64,000 nt of DNA from Candidatus Omnitrophota bacterium (GTDB lineage: Bacteria > Omnitrophota > Gorgyraeia > Gygaellales > Profunditerraquicolaceae): positions 9,683-73,682 of the forward strand of contig JAPLLR010000043.1 of the NCBI GenBank assembly GCA_026387455.1, given 5' to 3'. Positions within the stretch are counted from its first letter, which is position 1, and the number at the start of each line of letters is the position of its first letter. Below are positions 2,884 through 59,322 of this stretch, piece by piece. Under the pieces are notes generated by a model. That model did no database searches. It had not been told where the DNA came from and worked only from the letters and a program-made list of their open reading frames with translations. The translations under genes were made by a program, and so were the position numbers.

Positions 2884-4169
2884 AAATGAAGATAGTTTAT
2901 CTATTGAGCACTGCCATTATCATCACCATTGTTGCTACCGGAACCCTTTTAGCTGGTTCAAAAGCGGATCCCGTGATAGTCAAAAATGAGGTGATCCTTC
3001 AGAAGGGGCCGGGCGAATATACGGAGGTCCGCCACATAGTCCTTAAGGGGTCCAATGAGGAGATCGGCAGGGCGCTGGCTGACATCGCGCAAAAAGATTA
3101 CAAGGCCTCGCTGGTAAAATACGCCAGTCCTATCTACGCTAAGGCCCGGCTTGAATACATGAAGAGGAATTATCCCATCCTGTTGGAACGCATGAAAGGT
3201 GTAGCGCGCTCCTACGGCCTCTCTTTAGATGATACTGATCTCGATACGAGCAGTTTATATTATTGCATGCCCGCGCCGAAATGCTCGGCGGCTTTTTTCC
3301 CCGCGCGGATATCCGCCAACAAACATAACTTTTATGTTTTAAACAGGGATTACTACCTGGCGAGCATGTCCGAGATTATGGACGCCAAGCGCCTGCCGGG
3401 CGAGGGGGATTTTTTATCGCGTATGTTTGTGATAGAAATGTATCCGGATAAAGGATACCCCTCTATCGCGATCGGCGCGCTGGACCTGCTCAATATGCAT
3501 GTTGACGTGGTTAACTCAAAAGGGTTAAGCGTTGCGATGCTGGAAGACGATACCTACGGCATGGAGCGTATAATGAAGGATCTGTCCCGGCAGTCCGGAC
3601 TGAATATGAGTCAGGCCATCCGGCTTATCGTTGATACCTGCGCTACGGTGGAGGAGGCGAAAACCGCCCTTTTAAACAATAAAATATCTGTGACTCTTTT
3701 GCCCACGCATTTTATGGTCATGGACAGTTCCGGTAGGTCGTTTATTTACGAGCGGTCTTCTAAGGATTTTAGTGATCGTTTCCTGGATAATAATGGTTTG
3801 CCGCAGCTGATAACCAATCACTCTGTTTGCGATTATCCTACGGTTGATAAATTCCCCAAAGCGCCCGAGGATGATTATGATACTTTTAACCGCTACCGCA
3901 GGCTGGATGAATATGTGCGGGGCCACTCCGGTAAATATTCCATTGAGGATGGTAAACACGCCATGAGTCTGGTGTATGGTTGTGTCAACGAAGCGACTGA
4001 AGGGGGATATCACGCTCTACCGCTAAGGACACTTTATACCGCGGTAGTCGATATTGATGAACGCGCAATATCGGTAAAGTTCTATCTGCGGGATGGGAAA
4101 ATCGATCCGGCGACCGGAGTCCCGGAGCTCGTCTTCTCGAAACCGTTTGAATTTAAATTGAAGGAATAA
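2880..4169 (+). CDS. Secreted Ntn-hydrolase-like protein (C45 peptidase / acyltransferase-like)
   Basis: Signal peptide/TM at the N-terminus; the internal motif PKCSAAFF resembles the autoprocessing Cys nucleophile site of C45/choloylglycine-type Ntn hydrolases; family assignment is tentative. Confidence 0.4.
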   Translation: MKMKIVYLLSTAIIITIVATGTLLAGSKADPVIVKNEVILQKGPGEYTEVRHIVLKGSNEEIGRALADIAQKDYKASLVKYASPIYAKARLEYMKRNYPILLERMKGVARSYGLSLDDTDLDTSSLYYCMPAPKCSAAFFPARISANKHNFYVLNRDYYLASMSEIMDAKRLPGEGDFLSRMFVIEMYPDKGYPSIAIGALDLLNMHVDVVNSKGLSVAMLEDDTYGMERIMKDLSRQSGLNMSQAIRLIVDTCATVEEAKTALLNNKISVTLLPTHFMVMDSSGRSFIYERSSKDFSDRFLDNNGLPQLITNHSVCDYPTVDKFPKAPEDDYDTFNRYRRLDEYVRGHSGKYSIEDGKHAMSLVYGCVNEATEGGYHALPLRTLYTAVVDIDERAISVKFYLRDGKIDPATGVPELVFSKPFEFKLKE

Positions 4170-4198
4170 GAGGACGTTCCGGGAAAGGAGCGAAAGAG

Positions 4199-4717
4199 AT
4201 GGATGTTTTAGAAATTCTCAAAAGCAGAAGAAGCGTCAGGCAATACTCAGAAGAGCAGATATCAAAAGAATTTTTGGAGAAGATTGTTGATGCGGCCAGG
4301 TTTTCCCCTACTGCCAGAAATGTCCAGCCGTGGGAGTTTATTGTGATCACTCAAGCGCCTATTTTAAAAAAGCTTGGTGATTTAGCGGAGAACGCAAGAT
4401 TTCTAGCCCAGGCAAAAGCCTGTATCGCGGTATTTTGCGCTGATACAAAATATTATTTGGAAGATGGATGCGCCGCAACCTGTAATATTCTGCTTGCCGC
4501 GACTGCTCTGGGCGTTGGTTCCTGCTGGGTTGCCGGAGATAAGAAACTTTATTGCGAGGAAGTAGCTAAATTATTAAATGTACCTGTCACCTATAAATTG
4601 GTGAGCCTGGTGGCTTTAGGCTACCCTAAGTCCAAAGAAAGTTTCCATATCGCGCAAAAGAGAGGCCTGAAAGAAGTGATTCATTGGGAGAAATTGAAGG
4701 ATGGAAAAAGAGAATAA
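4199..4717 (+). CDS. Nitroreductase family protein
   Basis: RRSVRQY...ARFSPTARNVQPWEFIVI signature of the NfsA/NfsB-type nitroreductase fold; SD GGAGCGAAAGAG upstream. Confidence 0.8.
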   Translation: MDVLEILKSRRSVRQYSEEQISKEFLEKIVDAARFSPTARNVQPWEFIVITQAPILKKLGDLAENARFLAQAKACIAVFCADTKYYLEDGCAATCNILLAATALGVGSCWVAGDKKLYCEEVAKLLNVPVTYKLVSLVALGYPKSKESFHIAQKRGLKEVIHWEKLKDGKRE

Positions 4718-5480
4718 GGCAGTAGATAAAATTATACTTGTAGCACTTGTATTTGTAGGACTAATTCTGGCGATCCATGTTTTGTTGGTAAGGATGTATC
4801 AGGGCCTAATGCGCCTTGACTATTATAATGCTTCCTGTCTGTCAGGCATTACTATCCTTGTTTTCTTTTATGCCGCTATAAAGTTCAGTAAACCGCTGGA
4901 GCATCAAATCGTTAATTTTGTCTATTTTAAAGATAAACGGCATTATAAAACGCTGTTAGACGAGTCGATCCGCGATGGTTTGACCGGTTTGTTTGGTCAT
5001 AAATATTTTATGCAAAAGCTTGAAGAGGAGGTGGAGCGCTCTAAGAAGAGCCTAAGTCCGCTTTCGCTACTGATGATAGACATAGATTATTTCAAGAAAT
5101 TTAACGATACTTTTGGCCACCTTGAGGGTGATATGATCTTGACGGAACTCGCAGCTATGTTCAAGCGCTTTCGCAGGGAACAAGTCGATCTAGCCGCCCG
5201 CTATGGAGGGGAAGAGTTTGTCATACTGCTTCCGGAAACGTCCAAAGAAAACGCGAAGATTCTGGCTGAGGAATTGCTCAATCACGCAAAGAAAATCAAT
5301 ACCAGTAAGGGCGTGGTCACCATAAGCATCGGCATTGGTTGCTTTGACGGCAACAGTAAAGATTTTGCTAAAGAAGATCTGATCAGGATCTCAGACGCTG
5401 CGCTTTACCGCGCCAAAGCAGCGGGAAGGGATCGCGTGGAGATTCAAAGGGAGAGCGAGAAGGATGTATGCGAAGAATAA
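4701..5480 (+). CDS. Membrane-anchored GGDEF-domain diguanylate cyclase
   Basis: Two to three N-terminal TM helices, then DGLTGLFGHKYF, DIDYFKKFNDTFGH and the RYGGEEF active-site motif. Confidence 0.85.
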   Translation: MEKENKAVDKIILVALVFVGLILAIHVLLVRMYQGLMRLDYYNASCLSGITILVFFYAAIKFSKPLEHQIVNFVYFKDKRHYKTLLDESIRDGLTGLFGHKYFMQKLEEEVERSKKSLSPLSLLMIDIDYFKKFNDTFGHLEGDMILTELAAMFKRFRREQVDLAARYGGEEFVILLPETSKENAKILAEELLNHAKKINTSKGVVTISIGIGCFDGNSKDFAKEDLIRISDAALYRAKAAGRDRVEIQRESEKDVCEE

Positions 5481-6271
5481 TCAGTCTTATAGCATTGGCA
5501 GTTTTTTTTACGGTTATTCTTTGTCAGGCCTGTGAGCCTGAGCTCAAGGTGCTTAAGATCGAGCACGGGAGCGCGCAATCATTGTTTGAAGTGGCGAATA
5601 GCTTGAAAAGTGAGCAAGGCAAGGTAAGCTTTGACCAGAACTCCAACAGCCTGATCGTGTTTGATTGTCCGGAGAATATTTTGCGTATTGCCCAGGTGAT
5701 CAAGGGCATAGATATCCGGGAAAAGCAGGTCGAGATCAAAGTCCTGGTCATAGAGGCCAGCGAAAGATTCCTGGAGAATATCGGGGTTAGTTACAGTCAG
5801 GTCATTATCCCTCAGGGAAAGTTTATGGCGATTACGGAGCTGATCAAGGAAAGTAAAGAGGCCAGCACCCGTACTAGCATGATGGTCCGGACTTTGAGTA
5901 ATCGTCCGGCAGTGCTGCAGGTCACTACTGACGAGGTGATCGGTACCGAATTCGTGATATTCAGCAATGGTACGGAGATCACAACACCTGTAAGAGAGCC
6001 GATAGGCAGCATGTTGGAAGTATTGCCTACTGTGAATAACGATGGCTCGATTAATGTGGTCTTAAGGCCAACGGTCAACAGCATGGAGAAGCACGGCACT
6101 CCTTCTGAGAGGTCGATAATAACCCAGGTAGTGCTTAATGACGGAGATACTGTCGCAATAGGTGGAGCTCTGGTCCAAAAGGGGCGCTCCAAGAAAGGGC
6201 TTTTGTCAGGAAAATCCAGCGAGGAGAATAAGAAAGTGGAGATGTTTCTGACCGCTAAAATTGTTGATTAA
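5468..6271 (+). CDS. Minimal secretin-like outer-membrane protein (secretin N domain plus a short secretin core)
   Basis: Signal peptide; an N-domain-like segment (LKVLKIEHGSAQSL...IVFDCPENILRIAQVIKGID), then a secretin-core-like segment (QVEIKVLVIEASERFLENIGVSY...VEMFLTAKIV) that resembles PilQ/GspD C-terminal regions; only 267 aa. Confidence 0.5.
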   Translation: MRRIISLIALAVFFTVILCQACEPELKVLKIEHGSAQSLFEVANSLKSEQGKVSFDQNSNSLIVFDCPENILRIAQVIKGIDIREKQVEIKVLVIEASERFLENIGVSYSQVIIPQGKFMAITELIKESKEASTRTSMMVRTLSNRPAVLQVTTDEVIGTEFVIFSNGTEITTPVREPIGSMLEVLPTVNNDGSINVVLRPTVNSMEKHGTPSERSIITQVVLNDGDTVAIGGALVQKGRSKKGLLSGKSSEENKKVEMFLTAKIVD

Positions 6272-6325
6272 GGGTAGCCGGAGATTTGGGGATCTTTTTA
6301 AAATCCTCGTACTCGTAAATAAAAT

Positions 6326-9300
6326 ATGATTATCAAAGATTTGATTTTAGTTGACGAATTAACCGGGCATTATAACCGCAGGGGTTTTCGTGAGAGCATC
6401 GGACAGATACTTTCACTTCCCCATGGCGCTGCCAAATCCTTTTATCTTATCCTTACCGATTTAGACCATTTTAAAGATATTAATGACACCTACGGCCACT
6501 TAAGCGGAGACTTCGTGCTTAAGGAATTCGCGGCGCTTTTGGAGCGCGGATTACAGAATACCGAAGCGGTAATTGCCCGCTACGGCGGCGATGAATTTGT
6601 GGCGATTCTAAAAAACTGCAATAGGCAAAATGTAAGCGTCATCTGGGACAAGATACGGCGGGATGTTGCCAATAAAGAATTTATCCTCCCTGGTTCCAAG
6701 CAGAGCCTGCGTCTGACCATGAGCATAGGGATCGTGGAATTCCCTCAGGATGGGTTAACCCAGGAAGAACTGTTAGCTAAAGCCGATGAAGCCCTGTATT
6801 CATCAAAGAGGCTCGGTAAAAACAAACTCACCTTTGCCAACGAGATCCTTGTCCAGACCAAAGAAGAAAAAAGGATCCAAAAGAATATTGCTGAGCCGCC
6901 GTTTGTTGACCGGGCAAACGAATTAGCCGAGATCCAGAAGTTTATTTTTGGAGGGAAAAGCTATAAGCTTATTATCATAAATGGTGAGGTGGGCTGCGGT
7001 AAAAGCCGTATGCTCCAGGAGGTATCCATCCGGGCAAAGGCAAGGAACCTAAAAACATTCTTTCTTGTCTGCGGCGAACAGCAGAAAGAAAAGCCTTACA
7101 GTCTGCTGGAAGATATCATAGGTAGCCTTGTTTACGAGCATGTCGAAATATGCCAAAAGGCGGTGTTCGATCTTCCGCCGAAATTAAAAACCGCGCTCTC
7201 CGCATTACCAAAATTAAAAAGATTATTTGTGCCTCATCTTCATGTGACCCATTGGGATGCCGAGGTGAGGCTAAATCTATTCCACGGGCTCGCAGACCTT
7301 TGTGAAAGCATATTCACCCAGATAAATCCGCTTATTATCGTGGACAATCTCGATTGGATCGATGCCGCAAGCTCAGAAATATTAAGTTTCATAATCCTGT
7401 CTAAGAAACAGACTCCTTTTGTCTTATTAGGAAGCACCAGCCGCCCGGCTTCAAAAACGCACGATAGCGATTCAGCTCTTGATGCGTTGTTGTCGGAGAT
7501 CTCGGAGTTTGAGATTGTGCCTCACATAGCCCTGCCGTTTTTTAATCAGGCAGAGACCGAAGAAGTCGTAAAGGGGATTTTTAGCGGCCATGATATACCT
7601 GAAAAATTCACCAGCGAGTTCTTCGGCGCTACCGAAGGCAACCCCTTTTTCATTGTCGAGTTAATACAATACCTTTGGGACAGGAAAAACATTTATCTGC
7701 AATATCCTCATTGGATATTTCAAATTGACACAAGCCGGCTTCCGAGGGATTTAAGGGAGCTGCTTATCAGCAAGCTGCAAAACCTAGGGGCCGAAGAAAA
7801 GGAATTGCTTCTGGCTGTTTCCGGCATAGGGAGCAACCTTAAGTTTGATTTCCTTTCCAAGCTTAAAAAGATAAACCACGGGCACTTGCAGGATATCCTT
7901 TCCCGCATCTCAGAAAAAAATATCCTAAAGCTCGGAGAAAATCAGGTCGAAGATGAGGTTTTCTTCAATAACGATTCCCTGCGCTCGGTTCTTTATGAGA
8001 GTATCGATACTGAGAAGAAAAAGAAGATCCACCTTGATATTGCTACCACTCTTGAGCATGAATTCAAGAATAATACCGAAGAGATAAGCTCGGAGCTGGC
8101 CTTCCATTTCAACAAGGCAAATCTTGAAGCTAAGACAAAAAACTATGCCCAGCAGGCGGTCGTCTATATCGAAAACCTTTTTTCAAACGCTGAGGCGGAA
8201 AAGGTCATCGAAAATGCCATTAACGACCGGGAAGAGAAGGAGCGCCATGAGCCGATAAAAAAAGATACCTGGCCGCTGATAATGGAGATCATTAGCTCTT
8301 TTAATTCAGCGATAAAAAGTATGCAGATGTACCAGATGCCTAATGAGATCACCACAAAGATGGTCTATAGCCTAGCCAGATGTTTGGAAGAATTTTTTAC
8401 GGCCTACCATATACTTACCTTTAGCTGTCCGTCCGGAGATATCAAGCTTTTGATAAACGGGCAGGAATTGCATCTGCCATCCCATTCGGAAGATATGTTT
8501 ACAAAGACCATTCTTGCCATTATGAACATGGCTAATATCGGAAGCATTACTTTTCATCGCACTGTTTCGGCTAATGAGATCAAGGCATTTATCGGCCTTC
8601 TTTCTAATCCCAAACTATCGATGGAAAAAAAGGAACAATGGAAAAAGATCCTCCTTGATTATAAGATCAACGCCATAAATATCGATGAGGTGCTCTACAA
8701 AAAAGTCTATTCCGAAGAAGAAAAAAGGCAGTTGCATAAGGAATTCATCAAAGAATTCATGATAAAAAGAGCTATCGGAGAGGCTGTTCCTCTGCCGAAG
8801 GAAGGTGGCGCTAAGGTTGGTGACGAGAAAGAAGAGACCAAGGTCATCAAAAAAATAAAGGTTTTCGATGAAGCGGAAACAGACCTTTTTGCTAAAACCA
8901 TCTCCCATTTTTCGCCGGACGTGCTAGTGGAGGTAATTACTGATGAATACCGCCGTCATATAACAGCGATCTTGGATATCAGGGAAATGGTCAAGGTGTG
9001 CCTGAAAGACTCCCAACAAAAAGAAACAATCGCCGTAAAATTGAAAGATGCCCTAATAAAGTTGGGGATGTCGGATGTCTGCTTTGCGTGGCTTATCGAT
9101 AGTCATGATTTTCTGCACTATCCTGTGATCAAGAGGGCCAACACATATTTGAATGCTGATTCCGGAACTATTCTTGCTATGGGGGTTATAGAAAATCTTA
9201 AACCCACCCTTAATGAACTTTTTGTAATAAATGAAAGCGCTCTTGCAGAACAGATCTTGGATAAATATCTTCTGAATTTACAAAGCAGCGAGCTGGAAGC

Positions 9301-10213
9301 AAAGATATATACGGCCGTAACCTTGCCGGAGATCATAAAGATCATTCCCGCGCACCTTGCGGATTTCTACGTGAAAAGAATCACCGCTCTTTTTCTTCAG
9401 GCGCTTCATGTTGAAAATGATCAGCAAGCTTATGAATCGCTTGCGATGGATGCGGGGGCTATTATTTCTCGCTTACAGGAACTCAGCAATTATTGGGATA
9501 TCTATAGGGTTATCTCTACGCTAAAAGAAGATCTTAATGCTTCAGGAGGGCTTGTCTGGAGGAGGCAATTGGCTAAGGAAGCCTTGAAAGGAATAGACAT
9601 ATTTTCTCTGTGCGCTCAGCTAGCAAGTATTCTTGATGAAGTCGCCTTTGATGCCAGCAAGAATGCCTTAGTTATCTCTCTCTTTAAGAAGATGATGCCG
9701 GAAGGGATCCTTTATTTTATTGAGACATTAGAAACAAGGCAATCGAGCACCCTGCTTTTCGAATGGTACCTGCAGAACCTGGAATTACTGGATATACTCA
9801 AGGAATTTAAAACCGAAACCGTGCCTTTCATAGAAATGCTTATTGATTCAGGGGCACAGAAAAGGGTATTGCTTGCTTTAGATATAATGGAAAGGATAAA
9901 TGATGAACAGCAACTTCCTCTTTATGAAAAAGCTATTCAAAGCAATGACCTGGAGATTAAAAGAAATTATTTTCGATCGCTTATTCAGATGAATACAGAA
10001 AGCGCTTTTTCAATGATAAAAAGATTATTTCCCAGACAGGACCCCGAGACACAGCGGGATATTGTCATAGATATGGGGGTGTATGGGAGCAGAAAAGAGA
10101 TGAGTGAGTTTTTGAAAAGCCTGCTTGACCAGAAAATTTATGGGTTAGGCCGAAAAGAAATACTTTTGTACATTGATAAAATTAATACTTGCCTATCTCA
10201 TAAAGGGAAGTAG
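6326..10213 (+). CDS. Large multidomain signalling protein: N-terminal GGDEF domain, P-loop NTPase (AAA_16/STAND-like), and about 850 aa of helical (HEAT/TPR-like) repeats
   Basis: LTGHYNRRGF, DLDHFKDINDTYGH and RYGGDEF motifs in residues 1-170; Walker A GEVGCGKS and Walker B LIIVDNLDWID; long C-terminal helical region. Confidence 0.8.
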   Translation: MIIKDLILVDELTGHYNRRGFRESIGQILSLPHGAAKSFYLILTDLDHFKDINDTYGHLSGDFVLKEFAALLERGLQNTEAVIARYGGDEFVAILKNCNRQNVSVIWDKIRRDVANKEFILPGSKQSLRLTMSIGIVEFPQDGLTQEELLAKADEALYSSKRLGKNKLTFANEILVQTKEEKRIQKNIAEPPFVDRANELAEIQKFIFGGKSYKLIIINGEVGCGKSRMLQEVSIRAKARNLKTFFLVCGEQQKEKPYSLLEDIIGSLVYEHVEICQKAVFDLPPKLKTALSALPKLKRLFVPHLHVTHWDAEVRLNLFHGLADLCESIFTQINPLIIVDNLDWIDAASSEILSFIILSKKQTPFVLLGSTSRPASKTHDSDSALDALLSEISEFEIVPHIALPFFNQAETEEVVKGIFSGHDIPEKFTSEFFGATEGNPFFIVELIQYLWDRKNIYLQYPHWIFQIDTSRLPRDLRELLISKLQNLGAEEKELLLAVSGIGSNLKFDFLSKLKKINHGHLQDILSRISEKNILKLGENQVEDEVFFNNDSLRSVLYESIDTEKKKKIHLDIATTLEHEFKNNTEEISSELAFHFNKANLEAKTKNYAQQAVVYIENLFSNAEAEKVIENAINDREEKERHEPIKKDTWPLIMEIISSFNSAIKSMQMYQMPNEITTKMVYSLARCLEEFFTAYHILTFSCPSGDIKLLINGQELHLPSHSEDMFTKTILAIMNMANIGSITFHRTVSANEIKAFIGLLSNPKLSMEKKEQWKKILLDYKINAINIDEVLYKKVYSEEEKRQLHKEFIKEFMIKRAIGEAVPLPKEGGAKVGDEKEETKVIKKIKVFDEAETDLFAKTISHFSPDVLVEVITDEYRRHITAILDIREMVKVCLKDSQQKETIAVKLKDALIKLGMSDVCFAWLIDSHDFLHYPVIKRANTYLNADSGTILAMGVIENLKPTLNELFVINESALAEQILDKYLLNLQSSELEAKIYTAVTLPEIIKIIPAHLADFYVKRITALFLQALHVENDQQAYESLAMDAGAIISRLQELSNYWDIYRVISTLKEDLNASGGLVWRRQLAKEALKGIDIFSLCAQLASILDEVAFDASKNALVISLFKKMMPEGILYFIETLETRQSSTLLFEWYLQNLELLDILKEFKTETVPFIEMLIDSGAQKRVLLALDIMERINDEQQLPLYEKAIQSNDLEIKRNYFRSLIQMNTESAFSMIKRLFPRQDPETQRDIVIDMGVYGSRKEMSEFLKSLLDQKIYGLGRKEILLYIDKINTCLSHKGK

Positions 10214-10223
10214 GGGAGATGGA

Positions 10224-10865
10224 ATGATGAAAAAAACGATTCCTATTATGATTGCGGCGATGCTGTTGACAGTAACGGCATTTGCACAAGAGGCAAAGAC
10301 TATTCAGTTACCCAAGCCGAATATGAGCGGCGGGAAACCCCTAATGCAAGCGCTTAAAGAGCGCAAAAGTGTCCGTGAATTCAGCTCTAAGGAACTTACG
10401 CCGCAGGTTTTGTCGGACATGCTCTGGGCGGCAAACGGGATCAATCGTCCTGAGTTAGGATATCGCACCGCTCCCAGCGCCCATAACGCGCAGGAGATCG
10501 ATATCTATGCCGTGTTATCAGACGGGTTGTATTTATTTGATGCTTTGGCGCATGAGCTAAAGTTGATCGCGTCGGGAGACCTACGCGGCCTTACAGGTAA
10601 ACAGCCTTTTGTTAAAGAGGCAGCGGTTAATTTGATCTATGTCGCAACACTTTCTAAATTGGGAAACGCGTCCAGCGAAGACGCGGCTTTTTATGCGGCT
10701 ACTGATGCAGGATTTGTCAGCGAAAACGTGTATTTGTATTGTGCTTCAGCAGGTTTAGCTACTGTCGTGCGGGGGTGGGTGGATAAGACAGCTTTGGGAA
10801 AAGTGATGAAGCTAAGGCCAGATCAAAAGGTGATCCTTGCGCAAACCGTAGGCTATCCGAAATAA
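10224..10865 (+). CDS. Secreted SagB-type nitroreductase-family protein
   Basis: Signal peptide MMKKTIPIMIAAMLLTVTAFA; KSVREFSSKELTPQVLSDMLWAANGINRPE...APSAHNAQEID as in SagB/ThcOx-type dehydrogenases. Start moved to the ATG at 10224, which has an SD GGGGAGATGG (the ORF track starts at 10173, inside the previous gene). Confidence 0.7.
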   Translation: MMKKTIPIMIAAMLLTVTAFAQEAKTIQLPKPNMSGGKPLMQALKERKSVREFSSKELTPQVLSDMLWAANGINRPELGYRTAPSAHNAQEIDIYAVLSDGLYLFDALAHELKLIASGDLRGLTGKQPFVKEAAVNLIYVATLSKLGNASSEDAAFYAATDAGFVSENVYLYCASAGLATVVRGWVDKTALGKVMKLRPDQKVILAQTVGYPK

Positions 10866-10869
10866 AATC

Positions 10870-11280
10870 ATGGTGAATCTGGATAAAGAAAAATCATTGC
10901 ATGAGTTGATGATCCGCCTCGGGGTGCGCGAAGAGGATATAGAAGAAAAGTTTATCCGCTCCCAGGGGCCAGGCGGGATGAACGTTAACAAGGTTTCGAC
11001 CTGCGTGTATTTGCGGCATCTGCCAACCGGCATAGAGGTCAAATGCCAGCAGGAGCGCTCGCAGGCACAGAACCGATTTCTAGCCAGGCGGATTTTGTTG
11101 AGCAAGATTGAATCCAGTATTTTGGGCAGGCTTTCCGCGGAAAGAATGCGCATCGAGAAGATCCGCCGGCAGAAGCGCAGGAGATCCCGCCGGGCCAAGC
11201 TGAAAATCTTAGAGGCAAAGCGCCGGCATTCTCAGAAAAAATCTCTTCGCACCAGGGTGCGGCAGGGGGAAGATCAGTGA
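10870..11280 (+). CDS. ArfB-like RF-1 domain protein with GGM in place of the catalytic GGQ
   Basis: IRSQGPGGMNVNKVSTCVYLRH aligns with ArfB/YaeJ [22 protein letters not shown]; the basic C-terminal tail is as in ArfB; the codon is ATG, not CAG/CAA. Confidence 0.7.
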   Translation: MVNLDKEKSLHELMIRLGVREEDIEEKFIRSQGPGGMNVNKVSTCVYLRHLPTGIEVKCQQERSQAQNRFLARRILLSKIESSILGRLSAERMRIEKIRRQKRRRSRRAKLKILEAKRRHSQKKSLRTRVRQGEDQ

Positions 11281-11300
11281 TCTGCGCGTTAAATTGCTCT

Positions 11301-11329
11301 TGACTGATGGAGCTTGGCCGAATACAATA
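11301..11329 (+). promoter_or_regulatory. Sigma70-like promoter (TTGACT - 17 nt - TACAAT)
   Basis: Hexamers read from the sequence; lies about 200 nt upstream of carB. Confidence 0.4.
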
Positions 11330-11469
11330 GTACAAACATTAAAATCAGTTACAAAGGCTTGGGCTTAATGCTTCTAGCGGTAAAATCACACCAGAAATAT
11401 TTTAGGCAACTCTTGAGAATTTAGAGGGTTGCTTATTTTTTTACCCTAGCCTGCTTAAAATTTAATAAT

Positions 11470-11520
11470 ACACCCAACTTTATAGGAGAAGTTGGTGTTC
11501 CGCTTCCTGCGGAAGGAGGT
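11470..11520 (+). promoter_or_regulatory. Conserved two-hairpin 5' leader motif ending in GCGGAAGGAGGT, 5 nt before the carB ATG
   Basis: Near-identical to 23890-23940; hairpin 1 is CAACTT/AAGTTG here versus CTGGC/GCCAG in the other copy (covariation); hairpin 2 is TTCCGC-TTCCT-GCGGAA overlapping the SD. Confidence 0.55.
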
Positions 11521-11525
11521 TACTC

Positions 11526-14500
11526 ATGCCAAGACGTACAGACATCAAAAAAGTCATCATCATCGGCTCAGGCCCCATTATCATCGGGCAGGCCTGCGAA
11601 TTCGATTATTCCGGCACCCAGGCTTGTAAAGCGCTGCGTGAGGAGGGGTATGAGATCGTGTTGGTGAACTCTAACCCCGCGACTATCATGACCGATCCCG
11701 GTATGGCGGATAATACCTATATAGAGCCGCTTACCGTTGAGAGCCTGACCAAGATAATTGAGAAAGAGCGGCCGGATGCGCTGTTGCCTAATTTGGGAGG
11801 ACAGACCGGATTGAACCTGTCTTCTGCTTTGCATAAGTTAGGAGTATTGGATAAATTCGGGGTCAAGATCATCGGCGTAAAAGCTGACGCTATTGAAAGA
11901 GGTGAAGACCGCGATGCGTTCAAGGACACCATGAAAAAACTGGGCATCCCTGTGCCGCGCTCGCAGACCTGCAATACTTTAGTGGAGGCCCAGAAGGCGG
12001 CGCAGGAACTGGGCTATCCGGTGGTTATCCGTCCGGCATATACGATGGGCGGGACTGGCGGAGGTATCGCTTATAATAACGAAGATTTTTTTACTCTTGT
12101 AAATCGCGGTCTTAACGCTAGCATTATACATCAGGTGCTAATCGAAGAAGCGGTCATCGGCTGGGAGGAGCTGGAGCTTGAGGTGGTGCGCGACGAGAAG
12201 AATCAGAAGATTACCGTCTGTTTTATCGAGAATATCGACGCTATGGGTGTGCATACCGGAGATAGCTTCTGTGTTGCTCCTATGCAAACCGTCCCCCAGG
12301 AGCTGCAGAAAAGACTGCAGGATTATTCCTATAAAATTGTGGATGCCATTGGTGTGGTGGGGGGGACAAATATCCAGTTCGCGCACAATTTAAAAGACGA
12401 CCGCATAGTGGCTATAGAAATAAATCCCCGCACCTCGCGTTCTTCTGCTTTGGCTTCTAAGGCTACGGGTTTTCCTATCGCTCGCGTTTCTACAAAATTA
12501 GCCGCGGGTCTTACTCTCGATGAAATGCCTTATTGGAGAAAAGGGACATTAGAGAAATACGAGCCGTGGGGTGAGTATGTAGTGATCAAATTCGCGCGCT
12601 GGGCTTTTGAGAAATTTCGCCAGGCAAAAGATATCCTGGGCACGCAGATGAAGGCAGTGGGCGAAGTAATGAGTATTTCTAAGTCATTCAAGGAAGCGTT
12701 TCAGAAATCTATCCGCTCGCTTGAGACCGGAAGATACGGTTTGGGGTTTGCCAAAGATTTTAACAGTCTGTCTTTGGAAGAACTAAAGTCCCGGCTGGTA
12801 ACTCCATCCAGCGAGCGCGTATTCTTGGTGTATGAGGCGCTGCGCAAGGGCGCAACCGTAGAGGAGCTTTACGCACTCACCTTTATCGGCAGATGGTTTA
12901 TTAAAGAAATGAAAGAGATGGTTGAATTTGAACAGGATATGCTTGCCACCGGATGGCAGGGGCTGTCGGATGCGAGTTTGCGTAAAGCCAAGGAGTGGGG
13001 CTTCAGCGACAGGTACCTGGCCAAGATATTTAAGGTAAAAGAGGCGGATGTGCGCGGCCGCAGGAAGAAGCTGATGGGCAACGCTCGTTTTGAGCCTGTG
13101 CCGGTTAGCGGTGTGAAAGACGCCGCGTATTATTATTCCACTTATACTCCGGGCGAGGACCTGGTTTCAGTTTCCGGTAATAAAAAAATATTGATCTTGG
13201 GCGGTGGGCCGAATCGTATCGGACAGGGTATTGAGTTTGATTATACCTGTGTGCATGCGGCTTTTGCTCTGCGCGATGCGGGGTTGGAAACCATCATGAT
13301 CAACTGTAACCCTGAGACAGTCTCAACTGATTATGATACGTCAAATAAGCTTTATTTTGAGCCATTGACGGTTGAGGATGTCCTGGCGATATGGGAAAAG
13401 GAAAAACCGGTCGGTGCGATCGTGCAGTTTGGCGGTCAGACGCCTTTGAATATCGCCGCGGAATTGGAGAAGAACGGAGTGAAGATCATCGGCACAAGCA
13501 CTAAATCAATCGCTTTTGCTGAGGATCGCGAGTTATTCAGACAGAAGATGATAGCGCTGGGCATCCGACAGACCGAAGGCGGCACGGCGGGCTCCCTGGA
13601 TGAGGCGATTGCTATTGCCGGTAGAATTGGCTATCCGGCGATGGTCAGGCCTTCGTTTGTTTTGGGCGGCCGCGGTATGGAAGTGATTTACGACGAAAAG
13701 ATGCTTATTAAATACGCCAAAGAGGCGATACAGGTCTCACCTGAGTATCCTATGTTGATCGACCGTTTTCTGGATAATGCTATTGAATGCGAGGTGGATG
13801 CGCTTTGTGACGGCAAAGATACATTTGTGGCCGCGGTGATGGAGCATATCGAGCACGCAGGTATCCACTCCGGGGATTCCGCTTGCACTATTCCTTCGCG
13901 CAGCATTAAGCAAGAGCACTTGAAGACTATTGACGAGTGGACGAAAAAAATCGCCGTGGAATTAAAAGTGGTAGGCTTGATCAATATTCAATACGCTATT
14001 TGCGATGACCAGGTTTATATCTTGGAGGCTAACCCGCGAGCTTCCCGTACGGTGCCGTTGGTAGCTAAAACCATGGGCATTCCGTTGGCGCGTATTGCCA
14101 CCCAGCTTATACTGGGCAAAAAGATCAGCGACTTTACGGAGCTGATTTCGCGTAAGATTCCATATGTCACGGTTAAAGAAGCGGTGTTTCCTTTTAACAT
14201 GTTCCCGGAGGTCGATCCGGTTTTGGGCCCCGAGATGCGGGCAACCGGAGAGGTGATGGGAATCGGCGATGATTTCGGGGTGGCGTTTTACAAGGCCCAG
14301 GAGTCAGTGGGCACTAAGCTTCCCCTTGAGGGAAATGTTTTGATCACCGTAGCGGACAAGGATAAGCAGAATCTTTTTCCGATAGCCTCAAAGCTTGTGC
14401 AATTGGGATTTAAGATCTTTACAACGGAAAACACTCATAGATATTTGAAAGAAAAGGGTGTGGATTCTACTTTGATCAAAAAACTGCACGAGGGCAGGCC

Positions 14501-16715: not shown

Positions 16716-17210
16716 ATGCCAAATTTTTCGTTTGATGTAGTCTCCGAGGTTGACTTGCAGGAGATGGACAATGCCGTGAATCAGGCGAGTAAGGAGCTGG
16801 CTCAGAGATATGATTTTAAGGGCAGCAAATCCTCGATCGCCTATGACCGCACGGAAAAGCTGGTCACCCTGATAGCCGATGACGATTTTAAACTGCGCGC
16901 CCTTACTGATATGTTGGTCGGCCGCATGGCTAAAAGAGGCATATCCGTTAAGTCCCTTAAATTCAATGATCCGGAAAAGGCTTTTGAAGGGTACCTGCGT
17001 CAGAAAATCGAGATCTGTATGGGTATTGACAAGGAAAACGCCAAAAAGCTTACCGGCATTATAAAAGAGCTGGGCCTGAAAGCGCAGGCTCAGATCGAGG
17101 GAGAAAAGATCAAGGTCTCTTCCGCGAAAAAGGATGATTTGCAGGCAGTGATCGCGCATCTAAGGGCTCTGGAGTTTCCTATACCGCTCAGTTTCTGTAA
17201 TTACCGCTAG
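16716..17210 (+). CDS. yajQ: YajQ-family (UPF0234) nucleotide / c-di-GMP-binding protein
   Basis: MPNFSFDVVSEVDLQEMDNAVNQASKELAQRYDFKGS is the characteristic YajQ N-terminus; 164 aa. Confidence 0.85.
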   Translation: MPNFSFDVVSEVDLQEMDNAVNQASKELAQRYDFKGSKSSIAYDRTEKLVTLIADDDFKLRALTDMLVGRMAKRGISVKSLKFNDPEKAFEGYLRQKIEICMGIDKENAKKLTGIIKELGLKAQAQIEGEKIKVSSAKKDDLQAVIAHLRALEFPIPLSFCNYR

Positions 17211-29079: not shown

Positions 29080-30999
29080 ATGAAATTCCTTAAAACTATT
29101 CCTTTAAAGATCTGGGTCATCAGTGCTTCGGTCCTGATGATTTTCTTTTTTTCATGGGGCAGGACTTTTAACAATTACGAGTCCATATCTTATGATCTGC
29201 GCTTTAAACTCCGTCCGGTTTTAAAGGTTAGCCCCGATATCGTCATTGTCGAGATCTCTGACGATACCCTTAAGAGACTGGGAGAATGGCCGCTTTCCCG
29301 GGATTTTCACGCCAGCCTTATTGATGTTTTAAAAGAAAAAGGCGTGCGCATGGTGGTTTTTGACGTGCTTTTCAGCGAGCCTGCCGTTTATGATGATGTC
29401 TTGGCAAAATCCATTAAAGATGCCGGGAATGTGTACATGGCGGTGGCGTTAGAAAATCCGCAAGGCAGAAGTTTTCCTTTAAAGAGCAGCACAGTAATCG
29501 CGGACCTGCGTGACACCTTTAGGGAATCCTGCGTGGGAGTGGGTTATATTAACGCGGATATCGATCCCGACGGCAAGGCGCGCAAGGTGCCGCTCTTCAT
29601 AAAATGCGAAGGAAGTCTTTATCCGCAGCTTGCGCTTAAGGTGGCCGGGGATTGGCTGGGCCTTGATTTGAATAGCGCGGTCTATAAAAGAGGCAGGATC
29701 GTTATCGGGGGAAATTATTCCCTTCCGGTTCTACCGGAAGGTTCCTTTATGGTCAATTACCCCGGCACATGGAGCTCAACCTTTAGGCATTTATCATATG
29801 TAGAAATCCTTAAAGCTTATACTGACGAGAAGCAGGGTATCAAGCCGCAGCTTGATTTATCTATCCTTAAAGATAAAGTCTGTTTTGTCGGCCTTACCGC
29901 TACAGGTACTTCCGATATCAGGCCCAATCCGCTGGAGAATCTCTATCCTATGCTTGGGCTACAGGCAAGCGTCTTAAACAGTATTTTGACTAGTAGGTTT
30001 ATCACGCCTGTGGGATTATTCCTGAATACGTTTATTAATCTGCTGGTTTTTGCGTTAAGCCTCTTTATTTGTTTACGTTTCGCGCCCTTAAGAGCTTTTT
30101 GCTCAAGCATTATTTTAGGCAGCGTCTATTTTATTTTTGCTGTTACTGTTTTTGTGTTTTTCGGCTTCTGGGTAGATCTGTTTTTGCCGCTTTTTATCAT
30201 TGCGCTTACCTATATTGGTTCAACAGCTTATCGCTTTTTTAACGAAACCAAGAAACGCCAGCTTCTGGAGAAAGAGCTGGATATCGCGCGGGCTATTCAG
30301 AAGAGCTTCCTTCCTAAGGATATAAAAGAGTTTTCCGGAATAACCGTGTCCAGCTTCATGCAGCCGGCGAAATTCGTTGCTGGAGACCTGTATGATATCC
30401 TGACGGTTAAAGATAATAAAGTGGGCGTATTTATCGGAGATGTCTCGGGCAAAGGTGTGCCGGCGTCGTTGATTATGGCCCAGACTATTTCGTTATTTCG
30501 GGTGTTCGCCAATCAGTATGATTTCGCGCATGAAGTATTAAACCGCCTGAATAAAGAATTATACGGTAGGTTTGAGGGAAGGTTTGTCACTTGTCTTTAT
30601 ATGATCATCGACTCGCAGGCAGGTAAGGTGCAGGTTTCTTCAGCGGGACACTCTCCGGTTCTGGTTTACCGTAAGGGCGGCAACGCGGTTTTAGAGATCG
30701 AGCTGGGGGCAGGAATGCCCTTGGGGGTAATGGATGAAACGGAATATGAAGACGTCGCATTTGATCTAAGGCCCAACGACAAGGTCATGGTTTATACGGA
30801 CGGTCTTTCCGAGGCGCGCAACCGCCAGTCCCAGGAGTTCGGATCCGAGAACGCAAAAAGAATATTTTTCGAGCATGGAGACGCTTCTTCTGATAGAATA
30901 TTAGGGGTGACAAAGGAAGCGCTCAGCCGTTTTGCAGCCGGCGCGCCGCAGCATGACGATATCACTATTATCGTGCTGGCGAATCTAAGGAAGAGTTAA
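29080..30999 (+). CDS. CHASE2 sensor-domain PP2C/SpoIIE-type serine phosphatase
   Basis: N-terminal TM plus a periplasmic CHASE2-like region, several TM helices, then RAIQKSFLP...GDLYD...GDVSGKGVPASLIMAQ...HDDITII phosphatase motifs. Confidence 0.8.
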   Translation: MKFLKTIPLKIWVISASVLMIFFFSWGRTFNNYESISYDLRFKLRPVLKVSPDIVIVEISDDTLKRLGEWPLSRDFHASLIDVLKEKGVRMVVFDVLFSEPAVYDDVLAKSIKDAGNVYMAVALENPQGRSFPLKSSTVIADLRDTFRESCVGVGYINADIDPDGKARKVPLFIKCEGSLYPQLALKVAGDWLGLDLNSAVYKRGRIVIGGNYSLPVLPEGSFMVNYPGTWSSTFRHLSYVEILKAYTDEKQGIKPQLDLSILKDKVCFVGLTATGTSDIRPNPLENLYPMLGLQASVLNSILTSRFITPVGLFLNTFINLLVFALSLFICLRFAPLRAFCSSIILGSVYFIFAVTVFVFFGFWVDLFLPLFIIALTYIGSTAYRFFNETKKRQLLEKELDIARAIQKSFLPKDIKEFSGITVSSFMQPAKFVAGDLYDILTVKDNKVGVFIGDVSGKGVPASLIMAQTISLFRVFANQYDFAHEVLNRLNKELYGRFEGRFVTCLYMIIDSQAGKVQVSSAGHSPVLVYRKGGNAVLEIELGAGMPLGVMDETEYEDVAFDLRPNDKVMVYTDGLSEARNRQSQEFGSENAKRIFFEHGDASSDRILGVTKEALSRFAAGAPQHDDITIIVLANLRKS

Positions 31000-31002
31000 G
31001 CG

Positions 31003-31782
31003 ATGGAAAAGAAGGACCCGCGCGTAATTGAGAAAAAGGCTTACGATTTTTTAGTCGAGTCAAAATATGAGGATGCTTTTCACGCTTTTCGCGAGGCAGG
31101 TGATCTTTACAGCGCGGCAGGCAGCCATAAAGAGTCGTCGCTATGCTTCTCTTCCGCGGCAAGCTGTTGGGCGTTGAGGCAGGGGGAGAAGGTGCTCCAG
31201 AACGCAGCTATCTCCTACGAATCGGCGGCATCTGAGGCGGAGAAAGCGGGGGACTATGAGTATGCTTCATTACTGTACCGGTACGCCGCGATTAATTACG
31301 AGAAAGATATGGAGTTCGCGAAGTATTCGGAATGCTTCTTTGCTTCAAAAGAATCGCAGCGCAGGTACTTGATGTTCAGTGTTTTTAATCCTAAAAGGAT
31401 CCATAATATAAGCACAGGCAAGGGTCATAAGTGGACTCATAGTATTATAAAGCGCACCTATCATTGGTTGGGCCTGACCTTTGCGGCTATGCTTTGGGGG
31501 CATGGTGAGCGACCGATGAGGACGTTTTTATTCGCCATCTTTATAATCTTTGCAATGGCGTCTTTGTATACGTTTGGCAGGCTGGAGGCTGATAATGAGG
31601 TGTTTCGGCCCAACATTTTTAGCGCGATGTATTTCAGCGCTATAACTTTTACTACTGTAGGTTATGGGGATATCAATCCAATAGGCCTTACCAGGGCTCT
31701 GGCCATGGTTGAGGCGTTTTGCGGAGTTTTTATTACCCCGCTATTCATTGTCGGTATGTCCCGTAAGTATCTAAGGGTCTAG
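31003..31782 (+). CDS. Potassium channel (two-TM pore domain) with an N-terminal cytoplasmic helical domain
   Basis: Selectivity filter TVGYGD in ITFTTVGYGDINP, flanked by TM helices. Confidence 0.8.
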   Translation: MEKKDPRVIEKKAYDFLVESKYEDAFHAFREAGDLYSAAGSHKESSLCFSSAASCWALRQGEKVLQNAAISYESAASEAEKAGDYEYASLLYRYAAINYEKDMEFAKYSECFFASKESQRRYLMFSVFNPKRIHNISTGKGHKWTHSIIKRTYHWLGLTFAAMLWGHGERPMRTFLFAIFIIFAMASLYTFGRLEADNEVFRPNIFSAMYFSAITFTTVGYGDINPIGLTRALAMVEAFCGVFITPLFIVGMSRKYLRV

Positions 31783-51739: not shown

Positions 51740-54220
51740 ATGAAGAAGATCTACGTAGTAATTATCCTCTCTAGTTTAATTCTTGCCTTCATCAATCCTT
51801 GTGTATTCTGCGCTGATAGCCCTGCTGACAGTCAAAAGGAAGAAGAGGCTATTTTTGTGGCGAAAAAAGCTTTTGACGACGGGTTTTATGATGTTTCGCT
51901 TGGTTTACTTGAGCGTTTTCAGAAAAGCTATCCTGATTCTCCTGAAGCGGTAGAAGCCAGCTTGCTTATCGGGCAGTGCTATTTTCAGCAGAACCGTTTT
52001 TTGGATGCTTTGAATAAATTTGAGAGCCTTTTGAATCTTCCTCAAGCCGGGGATTTTAAAGACGCCGTATATTATTGGATCGCGGAGGTGCAATTTAAGG
52101 GAAATAATTTTGAACGCGCTGCCCAGTATTACAAGGCAATTATCAACGAGTTTCCTAAATCTTCCTATGTCCCGGCGGCGTATTATTCTTTGGGCTGGTC
52201 GCTATTCCAGAATAACAAGTTTTCTGAAGCTCTTAAGTGTTTTTTGATCGCGCAAGAAAAGTATCCTAAAGATCCTCAGATGCAGGATGTGTCTTTTAAG
52301 GTCATCCAGTGTCTGTATAATTTAAAGGATTACGACAAGCTAAAGGAACGCTTAAGGGCAGATCTAAAACTCTATGCAAAAGATCCGGCAAAGCTTGGGT
52401 ACCTTTATTTTTATCTTGCCGAATCGGAATACGATCTGAATAATTTTAATGAGGCGTTGGATGCTTATACCAAGGTGATCCAGTTCAGCCGCGATGAGGC
52501 TTTGCAAGCTTTGTCCATGCTGGGGAAAGCCTGGTCATATCTTAAGCTTAAACGTTACGTCGAGGCCCAAAACGCGTTCCTTGAGGTAAAAGAGGCAATT
52601 TTGGATAAGCGCAGCGCAGATATTCTGACTTTAGGTAAGGCGGTCCTGATGTCTGAGACGAACCGCCTGAATGAGGCAAAGGCTCTTTATGATAGATTAT
52701 CCCAGACAGCTGAGGATCCGTTGGTGTCTATGGAGGCGTACTTGGGAAAGGCCGAGGTCTTATACGGCCTTGCCGAGTATGATGAATCTCTTAAAGTCTA
52801 TCAAGAGGCGATTGGTAAATTGGGCGCGGGGTCAGTGCCAGGAGAAGTGGCGGATAAGCTGCATTATAATCTGGCCTGGGTGTATCTGAAGCAGGGGGAG
52901 TTCAAGGGCGCGATCCAGGAGTTCAAGAAGATTGTCAGGGATAGCGACGACAAGATCATCAAGGTTAGCGCGCTCTGCCAGATAGGCGACGCCTATCAGG
53001 ATTCAGGCGATTACCTGCGGGCACAGGAGACCTATGACACTATATTAAAGGATTATCCGGATAGCTTCTATAGTGATTACGTGCAGTATCAGGCTGGCCT
53101 GACCTTGCTTAGGAATTCAAATTACGACGGAGCGATCCTGGCGTTTCAGGCGCTAAAGAAGAATTATCCGCAGTCAAAGCTGATTGATGACGCGGCTTAC
53201 GCATTAGGCTCGGCGTATTTCCAGAAGCAGGATTACAAATCCAGCCGCGAGGAGTTTGTTAAGTTTCAGAACGAATTTAAGTCCAGCAGCATGGCCTCTC
53301 AGGCGCTATATCTTTTAGGCGCAAGCCTGTATAACCTGGGCAGGTTCCAGGAGGCAATCGACGTCTTTAAGAACATCATTAAATCTTACCCGCAGACCCC
53401 TGAGCTTACCCAGAAAGCCGAATATGAGATCGCGGACTGCTATTCTCAGATGGGCAATGAAAACGAAGCGATTACCCGTTTTAAGATTCTGCGTTCCAAA
53501 TATCCTGACTCAAGCCTTACCGCGGAAATCATGTGGTGGTTGGGAGAATACTATTACCGTCAGGGAGACCTGGAGCTTGCGCGTAAATATTTCTCATCAC
53601 TCATTCACGATTTCTCCAAAAGCAGTTTGGTGCCGGACGCTTATTATGCTTTAGGCTCCTGCTATGAAGAGGAGCTCAGGCACGATGAGGCGCTGGAGAA
53701 TTTCAAGCGTATCATCGAGCTGACCAAGTCTGACCTTACCGGTCAGGCTGCTGTGGCAATCGCGGATATTTATGTAAAGCGGGATATGCACGAGTTGGCT
53801 ATAAAAACCTATTCTGATATTATCCGGGTATTTCCTAATCTCACGCATCTAATTTATCCGAAACTGGCAGATGTGTATTATAAAATGAACAGGTATGACG
53901 ATGCTTTGGAATTCTACCGCAAGAGCCTGGATGCGGTTCCGGTGCGGGAGATGGCAGGTATTCAGCTTAAGATCGCGGAAGTCCGCGAGGCGCAGGGTAA
54001 GACTGATGAGGCGGTGGGGGAATATCTTAAGGTCACCTATGTATACCCTGAGGATACCGCTCTGGTGGTCAAGGCGCTTTTGCGCGTGGCAGCGATCTAC
54101 GAGGATAGAGATAAATTCAAAGAGGCGCTGAATATTTACGCAAAAGTGGTCTCCATGAATGTGGAGGAAGGGAAATTCGCCCAGGAGCAGATAGATCGCA
54201 TTGGCCCCAAGACAAAATAG
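51740..54220 (+). CDS. Large secreted tetratricopeptide-repeat protein
   Basis: Signal peptide; more than 15 TPR-like A-x-Y-x-L-G repeats over 826 aa; immediately upstream of exbB/tolQ. Confidence 0.75.
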   Translation: MKKIYVVIILSSLILAFINPCVFCADSPADSQKEEEAIFVAKKAFDDGFYDVSLGLLERFQKSYPDSPEAVEASLLIGQCYFQQNRFLDALNKFESLLNLPQAGDFKDAVYYWIAEVQFKGNNFERAAQYYKAIINEFPKSSYVPAAYYSLGWSLFQNNKFSEALKCFLIAQEKYPKDPQMQDVSFKVIQCLYNLKDYDKLKERLRADLKLYAKDPAKLGYLYFYLAESEYDLNNFNEALDAYTKVIQFSRDEALQALSMLGKAWSYLKLKRYVEAQNAFLEVKEAILDKRSADILTLGKAVLMSETNRLNEAKALYDRLSQTAEDPLVSMEAYLGKAEVLYGLAEYDESLKVYQEAIGKLGAGSVPGEVADKLHYNLAWVYLKQGEFKGAIQEFKKIVRDSDDKIIKVSALCQIGDAYQDSGDYLRAQETYDTILKDYPDSFYSDYVQYQAGLTLLRNSNYDGAILAFQALKKNYPQSKLIDDAAYALGSAYFQKQDYKSSREEFVKFQNEFKSSSMASQALYLLGASLYNLGRFQEAIDVFKNIIKSYPQTPELTQKAEYEIADCYSQMGNENEAITRFKILRSKYPDSSLTAEIMWWLGEYYYRQGDLELARKYFSSLIHDFSKSSLVPDAYYALGSCYEEELRHDEALENFKRIIELTKSDLTGQAAVAIADIYVKRDMHELAIKTYSDIIRVFPNLTHLIYPKLADVYYKMNRYDDALEFYRKSLDAVPVREMAGIQLKIAEVREAQGKTDEAVGEYLKVTYVYPEDTALVVKALLRVAAIYEDRDKFKEALNIYAKVVSMNVEEGKFAQEQIDRIGPKTK

Positions 54221-58792: not shown

Positions 58793-58805
58793 AGGGATAA
58801 ATACT

Positions 58806-59318: not shown

Positions 59319-59322
59319 AATT

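Follow-up and report, generated by a model that had tools for sequence, protein, structure and literature searches.

A stretch of 64,000 nucleotides from contig JAPLLR010000043.1 of a Candidatus Omnitrophota bacterium (the window) was analysed, with the focus on one large gene located on its forward strand at positions 6326–10213. The open reading frame (ORF) comprises 1295 codons, encoding 1295 amino acids, and begins at the first start codon past the upstream stop, so that an N-terminal extension of the product is impossible. The product is 100% identical to the database entry P0001, which carries the name 'MAG: diguanylate cyclase [Candidatus Omnitrophica bacterium]', and full-length homologues with 36–81% identity were found chiefly in metagenome-assembled genomes (MAGs) of Omnitrophota. 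The perfect database match and the full-length homologues together show that the ORF is a genuine gene and belongs to an uncultured member of the Omnitrophota. From the N-terminus onwards, the protein consists of a GGDEF domain, a STAND-type NOD, a helical arm, an alpha/beta domain, a linker that is probably disordered according to the structural model, and a HEAT/ARM-like solenoid (Table 1). The structure was predicted with AlphaFold in two parts: the model of residues 1–645, built on 24 homologues, reached a predicted local distance difference test score (pLDDT) of 86.7 and a predicted template modelling score (pTM) of 0.81, and the model of residues 620–1295 reached a pLDDT of 80.9. All statements on invariant residues refer to one alignment of 24 homologues (A1). 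An earlier note on this DNA, made from the sequence alone, had proposed an N-terminal GGDEF domain without an upstream sensor, followed by a STAND-type NTPase and helical repeats, and this order was confirmed. As judged from sequence and modelled fold, the protein displays the tested features of both GGDEF cyclases and STAND NTPases.

Table 1. Positions in the window of the gene under study, its parts and the neighbouring or related genes
Feature	Position (nt)	Strand	Basis
Whole gene, GGDEF-STAND-alpha/beta domain-HEAT protein	6326..10213	+	ORF list, translation, homologues
GGDEF diguanylate cyclase domain, residues 9-167	6350..6826	+	Pfam, Foldseek, PleD/GacA alignment
Linker helix between GGDEF and NTPase, residues 176-189	6851..6892	+	AlphaFold model
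P-loop nucleotide-binding domain of NOD, residues ~193-375	6902..7450	+	AAA_16/AAA_22 matches, motifs
Helical (384-452) and winged-helix (~456-560) domains of NOD	7475..8005	+	Model, Foldseek
Four-helix arm, residues 562-641	8009..8248	+	Model; TIGR03903 alignment reaching residue 622
Alpha/beta domain without Pfam match, residues 646-787, first sensor half	8261..8686	+	AlphaFold model 620-1295
Low-confidence Lys/Glu-rich linker, residues 808-848	8747..8869	+	pLDDT <50
HEAT/ARM-like alpha-solenoid, residues 849-1294, second sensor half	8870..10207	+	Model, Foldseek
Nitroreductase	4199-4717	+	
Membrane-anchored GGDEF protein, 259 aa, GGEEF motif	4701-5480	+	
Mini-secretin, 267 aa	5468-6271	+	
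Secreted SagB-like nitroreductase	~10221-10865	+	
Type IV pilus / type II secretion-like cluster: PilM-PilN fusion, PilO, secretin, MshEN-T2SSE ATPase	57242-63202	+	

The GGDEF domain lies at the extreme N-terminus, with no domain upstream of it, and is matched by Pfam PF00990 (E 1.8e-40; 138.8 bits against a cut-off of 23.8) as well as by TIGR00254 (E 3e-42). A Foldseek comparison with the PDB gave a target-normalised TM-score of approximately 0.9 between the modelled domain and GGDEF crystal structures. The RYGGDEF motif occupies residues 85–91 (nt 6578–6598), and D45, D47, F49, K50, N53, D54, H58, G61, D62, R85, Y86, G88–F91 and K161 are invariant across the homologues, D45, D47, K50, N53, D62 and K161 being the Mg/GTP residues. 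The GG[DE]EF signature is present, as are the counterparts of PleD D327, K332 and K442, and a residue-level alignment places the guanine-reading residues N53 and D62 on PleD N335 and D344, respectively. The sequence thus predicts an active, GTP-specific cyclase with cyclic di-GMP (c-di-GMP) as product, and it is the equivalence of Asp62 to PleD Asp344 that speaks for c-di-GMP instead of a Hypr-type mixed dinucleotide.

The earlier note had left the product open as c-di-GMP or another cyclic dinucleotide, of which the first part stands, while the second was rejected. The Geobacter Hypr enzyme GacA (6d9m) is the top PDB sequence match (E 1.9e-26), and residue 165 is Lys, as in this active enzyme, where PleD has Arg446; both observations could be taken to favour a Hypr or non-canonical GGDEF making cGAMP or c-di-AMP, or a degenerate domain serving as a nucleotide receptor. 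GacA, however, has Ser at the position of Asp62, which is invariant in the family, so that the Ser/Thr expected of a Hypr enzyme is missing, and a Hypr or other dinucleotide product was rejected on the basis of this residue. Moreover, every catalytic residue is intact, and the RxxD motif which receptor-type GGDEFs use to bind c-di-GMP is absent, making a non-canonical domain of either kind highly improbable.

The residue check suggested in the earlier note also covered the I-site, an RxxD motif five residues before GGDEF. This site is degenerate: residues 78–81 read QNTE, with a one-residue insertion, when aligned to the R-A-I-D of PleD. Close relatives of the protein have K-x-T-D at this site and the TPR-bearing sister clade keeps RxxD, while the motif is missing in 21 of 21 Desulfobacterales-clade members listed, most of which have AGDEF.

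The following region could be assigned to the P-loop NTPases, as the earlier note had claimed, by an AAA_22 match above the Pfam cut-off (29.8 bits against 27; P-loop families at residues 193–371), by the NCBIfam model TIGR03903 (TOMM kinase/cyclase-AAA_16 fusion), which aligned to residues 192–622 with E 4.8e-23, and by its fold. Weaker Pfam matches were to NACHT, ATPase_2 and NPHP3_N. Both motifs quoted in the earlier note are present, with the Walker A sequence GEVGCGKS at residues 220–227 (G220–S227; nt 6983–7006) and LIIVDNLDWID at residues 336–346 (nt 7331–7363), the latter combining Walker B (L336–N341) with a W-x-D motif (W344-I-D346). G223, G225 and K226 of Walker A, D340 of Walker B and D346 of W-x-D are invariant. 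An Arg at the sensor-1 position (R373; SDSRP, aligned to YREEE) and the GxP motif of the STAND helical domain (G438-N-P440, within a conserved GNPFF) are conserved across clades, and the conservation of the NTPase motifs spans the Omnitrophota, Desulfobacterales and WOR-3 relatives. The second Walker B acid is Asn (N341) in the clade of the query and in some WOR-3 proteins, and Asp elsewhere. Walker B mutants of other STAND proteins slow ATP hydrolysis, and by analogy the Asp-Asn pair would slow it here.

The model of residues 1–645 contains the tripartite NOD fold, with nucleotide-binding, helical and winged-helix domains. Foldseek matched it to the STAND proteins PH0952 (6mfv, with TPR), Apaf-1 (1z6t, 3sfz) and PAB2304 (2qen), with E-values from 1e-9 to 7e-9 over 410–570 aligned columns. 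The arm that follows carries the signature (K)IHxxIAxxLE ... ELAFHF, in which H569, just past the winged-helix domain, is invariant across homologues and was considered as a candidate for the MHD-like His that contacts ADP in STAND proteins; we take the signature I-H-x-x-I-A...E-L-A-F-H-F to be typical of AAA_16-TPR proteins.

The remainder of the protein had been described in the earlier note as one long HEAT/TPR-like region. This holds for the last ~450 residues, modelled as a solenoid, but overlooks the alpha/beta domain and the linker, which is the least conserved segment of the protein. The solenoid consists of about 25 consecutive helices, mostly with pLDDT above 90, and resembles PP2A-A HEAT, beta-catenin ARM and designed alphaRep proteins in Foldseek searches (E ~1e-4). 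The Pfam HEAT_2 match of the query sequence is not significant (E 0.037–0.13), and strong HEAT_2 matches are given by its relatives; membership of the HEAT/ARM class is hence assigned to the solenoid by its modelled structure, not by its sequence.

For the alpha/beta domain, Pfam searches with the query and with two copies from P0017 returned only noise, and profile sequence searches of the PDB revealed no credible relative. A profile match to a cytochrome c555 trimer (E 5.7e-9) looks artefactual, with three repeats summed, as judged from the single cytochrome c552, which scores only E 0.12. An exhaustive search of 1.84 billion representatives with a profile of the domain, on the other hand, retrieved 3608 clusters (50% identity) at E ≤ 0.001, and 770 at E ≤ 1e-10. 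A word-indexed search with the same alignment had found one 263-aa protein and missed the family, a sensitivity artefact for which reason it was replaced by the exhaustive search. Wherever the domain was seen (P0122–P0267) it was accompanied by HEAT repeats, and it is duplicated in the Desulfobacterales clade. The combination of alpha/beta domain and HEAT repeats was also encountered as stand-alone proteins of 530–820 aa, in fusion with a cNMP-binding domain, and as the C-terminal part of Ser/Thr-kinase-GGDEF-AAA_16 proteins. Since it occurs alone, in other fusions, and swapped for TPR in sister clades, the sensor is a mobile module.

The analogy drawn in the earlier note with class III cyclase-AAA_16-TPR(-LuxR) proteins, exemplified by M. 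tuberculosis Rv0386, Rv1358 and Rv2488c, proved to be well founded. In these proteins, as in the one studied here, an N-terminal cyclising domain is followed by an AAA_16-type NOD, an LHxxIA...HF arm and a helical-repeat sensor. The domain positions coincide, with Guanylate_cyc at 7–162 and AAA_16 at 192–364 in P0086 compared to GGDEF at 9–167 and AAA_16 at 193–364 in the present protein, and in a Mesorhizobium protein with the order SAM-Guanylate_cyc-AAA_16-TPR (WP_258124175.1) the cyclase likewise occupies the slot of the GGDEF domain. The NODs of the two types are homologous (21–24% identity), as also reflected in the TIGR03903 match. The present protein differs in that GGDEF (c-di-GMP) replaces the class III cyclase (cAMP/cGMP), in that the alpha/beta domain and HEAT/ARM solenoid replace TPR as sensor, and in that there is no LuxR DNA-binding domain. 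Pfam accordingly gave no match to PF00211, TPR or GerE, which places the protein outside the Rv0386 type, as it is also outside the Hypr GGDEF and Avs families; it plausibly works like the Rv0386 type.

A wider comparison is offered by Apaf-1, Pyrococcus PH0952 (6mfv) and MalT, which share the NOD fold, P-loop, Walker B, sensor-1 Arg, GxP and a C-terminal repeat sensor with the present protein, at ~15% identity and with other effector and sensor domains. ATP-driven oligomerisation has been demonstrated for these three and would by analogy apply here. In PleD and WspR, the canonical GGDEF core is 31–37% identical to that of the present protein, and in both cases activity is expected from the pairing of two GGDEFs. 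Diguanylate cyclases are usually activated by N-terminal sensor domains that dimerise them, and in PleD and WspR it is an N-terminal receiver that drives dimerisation, with product inhibition through RxxD. In contrast, the present protein has its GGDEF at the N-terminus and all regulatory parts C-terminal to it, and RxxD is lost.

We consider it fairly probable, by analogy with these systems, that the protein is a cytoplasmic diguanylate cyclase gated through induced proximity by a STAND ATP switch of the NLR/Apaf-1/MalT class. The strongest argument for STAND gating is that the GGDEF domain holds the slot of the class III cyclase in proteins with a homologous NOD. Class III cyclase and GGDEF domains share a fold, and neither is active except as a dimer; a lone GGDEF is unable to produce c-di-GMP, since two GTP-loaded GGDEF domains have to face each other for catalysis. 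The resting state would be a closed, ADP-bound monomer. Docking of a ligand or partner protein on the C-terminal sensor, that is, the alpha/beta domain and the solenoid, would permit exchange of ADP for ATP and oligomerisation of the NOD, which in turn would pair the N-terminal GGDEF domains and turn on c-di-GMP synthesis. The c-di-GMP produced may then be read by ordinary receptors, one candidate being an MshEN-domain pilus/secretion ATPase. The loss of RxxD together with the Asp-Asn Walker B suggests that the ON state would be long-lived and set by the switch, not by the level of product.

The rarity implied in the earlier note was not upheld by the family searches. About half of the 120 clusters listed in a word-indexed search combine GGDEF with AAA_16, in three layouts: GGDEF-AAA_16-HEAT (P0014, P0017, P0018, P0022, P0023), GGDEF-AAA_16-TPR, found in WOR-3 and Hydrothermota, and GGDEF-AAA_16-TPR-HD-GYP. 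Among the best 150 matches of the alpha/beta-domain profile, approximately 90 are proteins of 1300–1460 aa with the domain near residue 650–810. The search for homologues with the same tripartite architecture, which the earlier note had recommended, found GGDEF, AAA_16 and HEAT_2 in all of these large relatives that were sampled (33/33). Where given, their source names are 'diguanylate cyclase' or 'HEAT repeat domain-containing protein', and those with an organism name come from Desulfobacterales or Deltaproteobacteria MAGs. The earlier note had asked whether the architecture might be common and already annotated. It is common in metagenomes, but annotated only generically, as 'diguanylate cyclase' for instance, and since public databases contain many examples under such a name, the locus represents one divergent member of an existing family. 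Full-text literature searches returned no description of a GGDEF-STAND fusion, the nearest mention being of rare GGDEF domains in vWA-MoxR conflict systems (PMC7159879). A scan of a genome collection, in which L010 (39% identity) was the only close relative among the matches, used a generic AAA_16 Walker B/WxD pattern, retrieved mostly unrelated AAA_16 proteins and is uninformative on taxonomy.

The relatives differ from one another mainly in what surrounds the shared core. NOD relatives bear kinase, cyclase or HTH effectors. The proteins from Desulfobacterales MAGs and the Olavius algarvensis Delta-3 symbiont (P0014, P0017, P0018, P0022, P0122 and others) have the architecture of the present protein, including a homologous alpha/beta domain, and are 13–26% identical to it outside GGDEF; they differ in carrying the alpha/beta domain twice, mostly AGDEF, an Asp-Asp Walker B, and HEAT repeats that are recognisable by sequence, whereas those of the present protein are not. 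In the Olavius Delta-3 symbiont, two GGDEF-AAA_16-HEAT paralogues lie in tandem (L004, 8001–12230 and 13123–17367), adjoining an ECF sigma factor and a vWA protein. The GGDEF-AAA_16-TPR proteins of WOR-3 and Hydrothermota (P0015–P0037) and the TPR-HD-GYP proteins (P0038–P0041) have the same GGDEF-NOD order, as in P0015 with GGDEF at 12–168, AAA_16 at 189–370 and then TPR. Both groups are 26–30% identical to the present protein over residues 1 to ~620; in these relatives the sensor is TPR and RxxD is kept, and some add a c-di-GMP-degrading HD-GYP domain.

The window as a whole is core chromosome, with carB, pyruvate kinase, an arginine biosynthesis cluster, lysine biosynthesis, uvrA and Mla transport. 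Almost all of its genes lie on the forward strand (in the 22–64 kb part, 34 of 34 gene-like ORFs with 150 aa or more), all 2-kb bins show positive GC skew, and the window appears to be a single long leading-strand stretch. Within it, the gene under study belongs to a tightly packed co-directional run. The upstream gene for the membrane-anchored GGDEF protein overlaps both the preceding nitroreductase gene and the following mini-secretin gene; a recent duplication of this adjacent GGDEF gene was considered and rejected, as the two GGDEFs share only 29% identity. The mini-secretin has a signal- or lipoprotein-like N-terminus, Secretin_N at residues 27–87 and a partial Secretin domain at 127–239. 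Its gene stops 54 nt before the gene under study and is not conserved beside the homologues of the latter, and the mini-secretin shows no similarity to the product of the gene upstream of the homologue in L009. Two nitroreductase-family genes thus flank the GGDEF, secretin and GGDEF-STAND run, the downstream one encoding a protein with a signal peptide and a SagB-like profile match that stays under the curated threshold of the family; in L001, too, the homologue is preceded by a nitroreductase. A scan of positions 4000–11600 for promoters and terminators gave counts at chance level. No conserved operon partner was found among seven homologue neighbourhoods, which have no gene in common.

Elsewhere in the window, two ORFs without Pfam match lie at 407–988 and 1027–1737 (+; 193 and 236 aa), the product of the first resembling a multi-pass membrane protein. 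A CHASE2-SpoIIE (PP2C phosphatase) membrane sensor is encoded at 29080–30999 (+), followed by an ion-channel protein at 31003–31782, and an 826-aa TPR protein at 51740–54220 (+), between uvrA and a MotA/ExbB-family gene.

A recurring loose proximity to type IV pilus and type II secretion genes is suggestive only. The genes for P0010 and P0011 are immediately followed by an MshEN-T2SSE / T2SSF / pseudopilin / PilM cluster, those of the Desulfobacterales relatives are found 3–5 kb from PilC and PilS, and the window contains, besides the mini-secretin next to the gene under study, a pilus/secretion-like cluster of its own (Table 1). What we take to be the c-di-GMP-binding motif of MshEN was used to recognise the ATPase copies, and the N-terminus of the ATPase in the window has two near-canonical MshEN motifs, RLGELLVQESLISADQLEKAISTQ and RLGEIVVKLGLVKEDQLVAVLGRQ, making it a candidate receptor for the c-di-GMP of the GGDEF-STAND protein. 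The window also encodes a YajQ/DUF520 protein (16716–17210, +; Pfam match), from a family that includes some reported receptors of c-di-GMP (PMC10333796).

Several observations weigh against the STAND-gated cyclase and its proposed output. The AAA_16 match, at 32.5 bits, falls 0.1 bit short of its cut-off of 32.6. Oligomerisation and its effect on the GGDEF domains are things we infer purely from the STAND paradigm, and the ligand, the downstream target and the direction in which regulation would work are likewise inferred. On the output side, the homologue with 81% identity has other neighbours and the pilus/secretion link is weak, the MshEN motifs are degenerate in the ATPase beside P0010, and the pilus cluster of the window is ~50 kb from the gene. 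Finally, an NTPase serving as a nucleotide-binding scaffold, without cycling, could explain the Asp-Asn Walker B just as well.

This last point leads to an alternative in which the GGDEF domain is active constitutively or by some other route, and the NTPase and HEAT parts form a nucleotide-binding adaptor that docks the enzyme on a target machine, such as a pilus or secretion apparatus, for local c-di-GMP signalling. Poor ATP hydrolysis, as the Walker B of the query clade could imply, would fit such an adaptor, as would the solenoid, HEAT/ARM solenoids being typical protein-docking surfaces, the existence of the sensor module as stand-alone proteins, and the loose recurring nearness to the pilus and secretion genes. 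However, the Walker A Lys, Walker B Asp, sensor-1 Arg and GxP are conserved in distant relatives, which argues for a working switch, the Desulfobacterales relatives listed have the canonical Asp-Asp Walker B, and a GGDEF without a dimerising partner domain has no obvious route to activity alone. We regard the adaptor as rather unlikely.

A more specific version of the STAND-gated cyclase can also be envisaged, in which it acts as an NLR-like receptor. Omnitrophota have been reported as host-dependent nanobacteria, and the sensed protein could be derived from a host or prey; its binding would assemble an apoptosome-like ring of GGDEF domains, and the ensuing feedback-free burst of c-di-GMP would act on MshEN pilus/secretion ATPases and attachment, the output not being cell death. 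This is conceivable, if rather unlikely.

The effector-NOD-repeat layout is shared with Avs proteins and NLRs, which raises the question of whether the protein is an antiviral STAND of the Avs/bNACHT kind, in which HEAT would sense a phage protein and GGDEF would make an alarm dinucleotide that activates a toxic effector. The earlier note had likewise pointed to defence NTPases. Within the superfamily, STAND clades with and without a defence role are intermingled (PMC13581612), and rare GGDEFs do occur in other conflict systems (PMC7159879), both of which lend such a role some support. Against this, no PADLOC model matched the protein or five nearby gene products, and tblastn against 50,697 phage records yielded no homologue, two empty searches on which the defence hypothesis was rejected. 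The seven homologue neighbourhoods, assessed by precomputed Pfam labels, revealed neither a gene recognisable as defence-related nor an effector activated by dinucleotides; the gene contexts are of housekeeping type and not conserved, the window itself being core chromosome. Matches on plasmids, mostly large replicons, were limited to the NOD (21–24% identity) and belong to adenylate/guanylate cyclase-AAA_16-TPR signalling proteins.

The divergence of the sensor points in the same direction. Within the clade, identity is 31–54% for the alpha/beta domain, 31–41% for HEAT and 32–51% for the nucleotide-binding domain, and a direct comparison of sensor with NTPase gives 35–41% against 35–51%. The two thus diverge at similar rates; the sensor is not hypervariable, and nothing hints at an arms race. 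Canonical c-di-GMP would furthermore be a poor alarm, given that the adjacent housekeeping-type cyclase makes c-di-GMP too. A recent STAND census judges by the presence of defence genes nearby or of an immune effector (PMC13581612), and the protein has neither; compared to Avs/bNACHT proteins, with which it shares the effector-NOD-sensor layout, it lacks a defence context, a PADLOC match, a toxic effector and a hypervariable sensor. A role in phage defence is thus quite improbable, and the protein is probably an ordinary signalling protein.

The practical value of the finding is moderate, in that it provides a clear biochemical test case rather than an answer to a long-standing question. A large sensor module without functional annotation, consisting of the alpha/beta domain and HEAT repeats, has been delimited, and if the protein were an NLR-like receptor, this would be the first function for a module present in more than 3000 protein clusters. 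If the STAND-gated cyclase is correct, the family would represent a distinct, ATP-dependent and oligomerisation-based control of c-di-GMP, in which the STAND effector slot is filled interchangeably by class III cyclase and GGDEF, two cyclases of the same fold.

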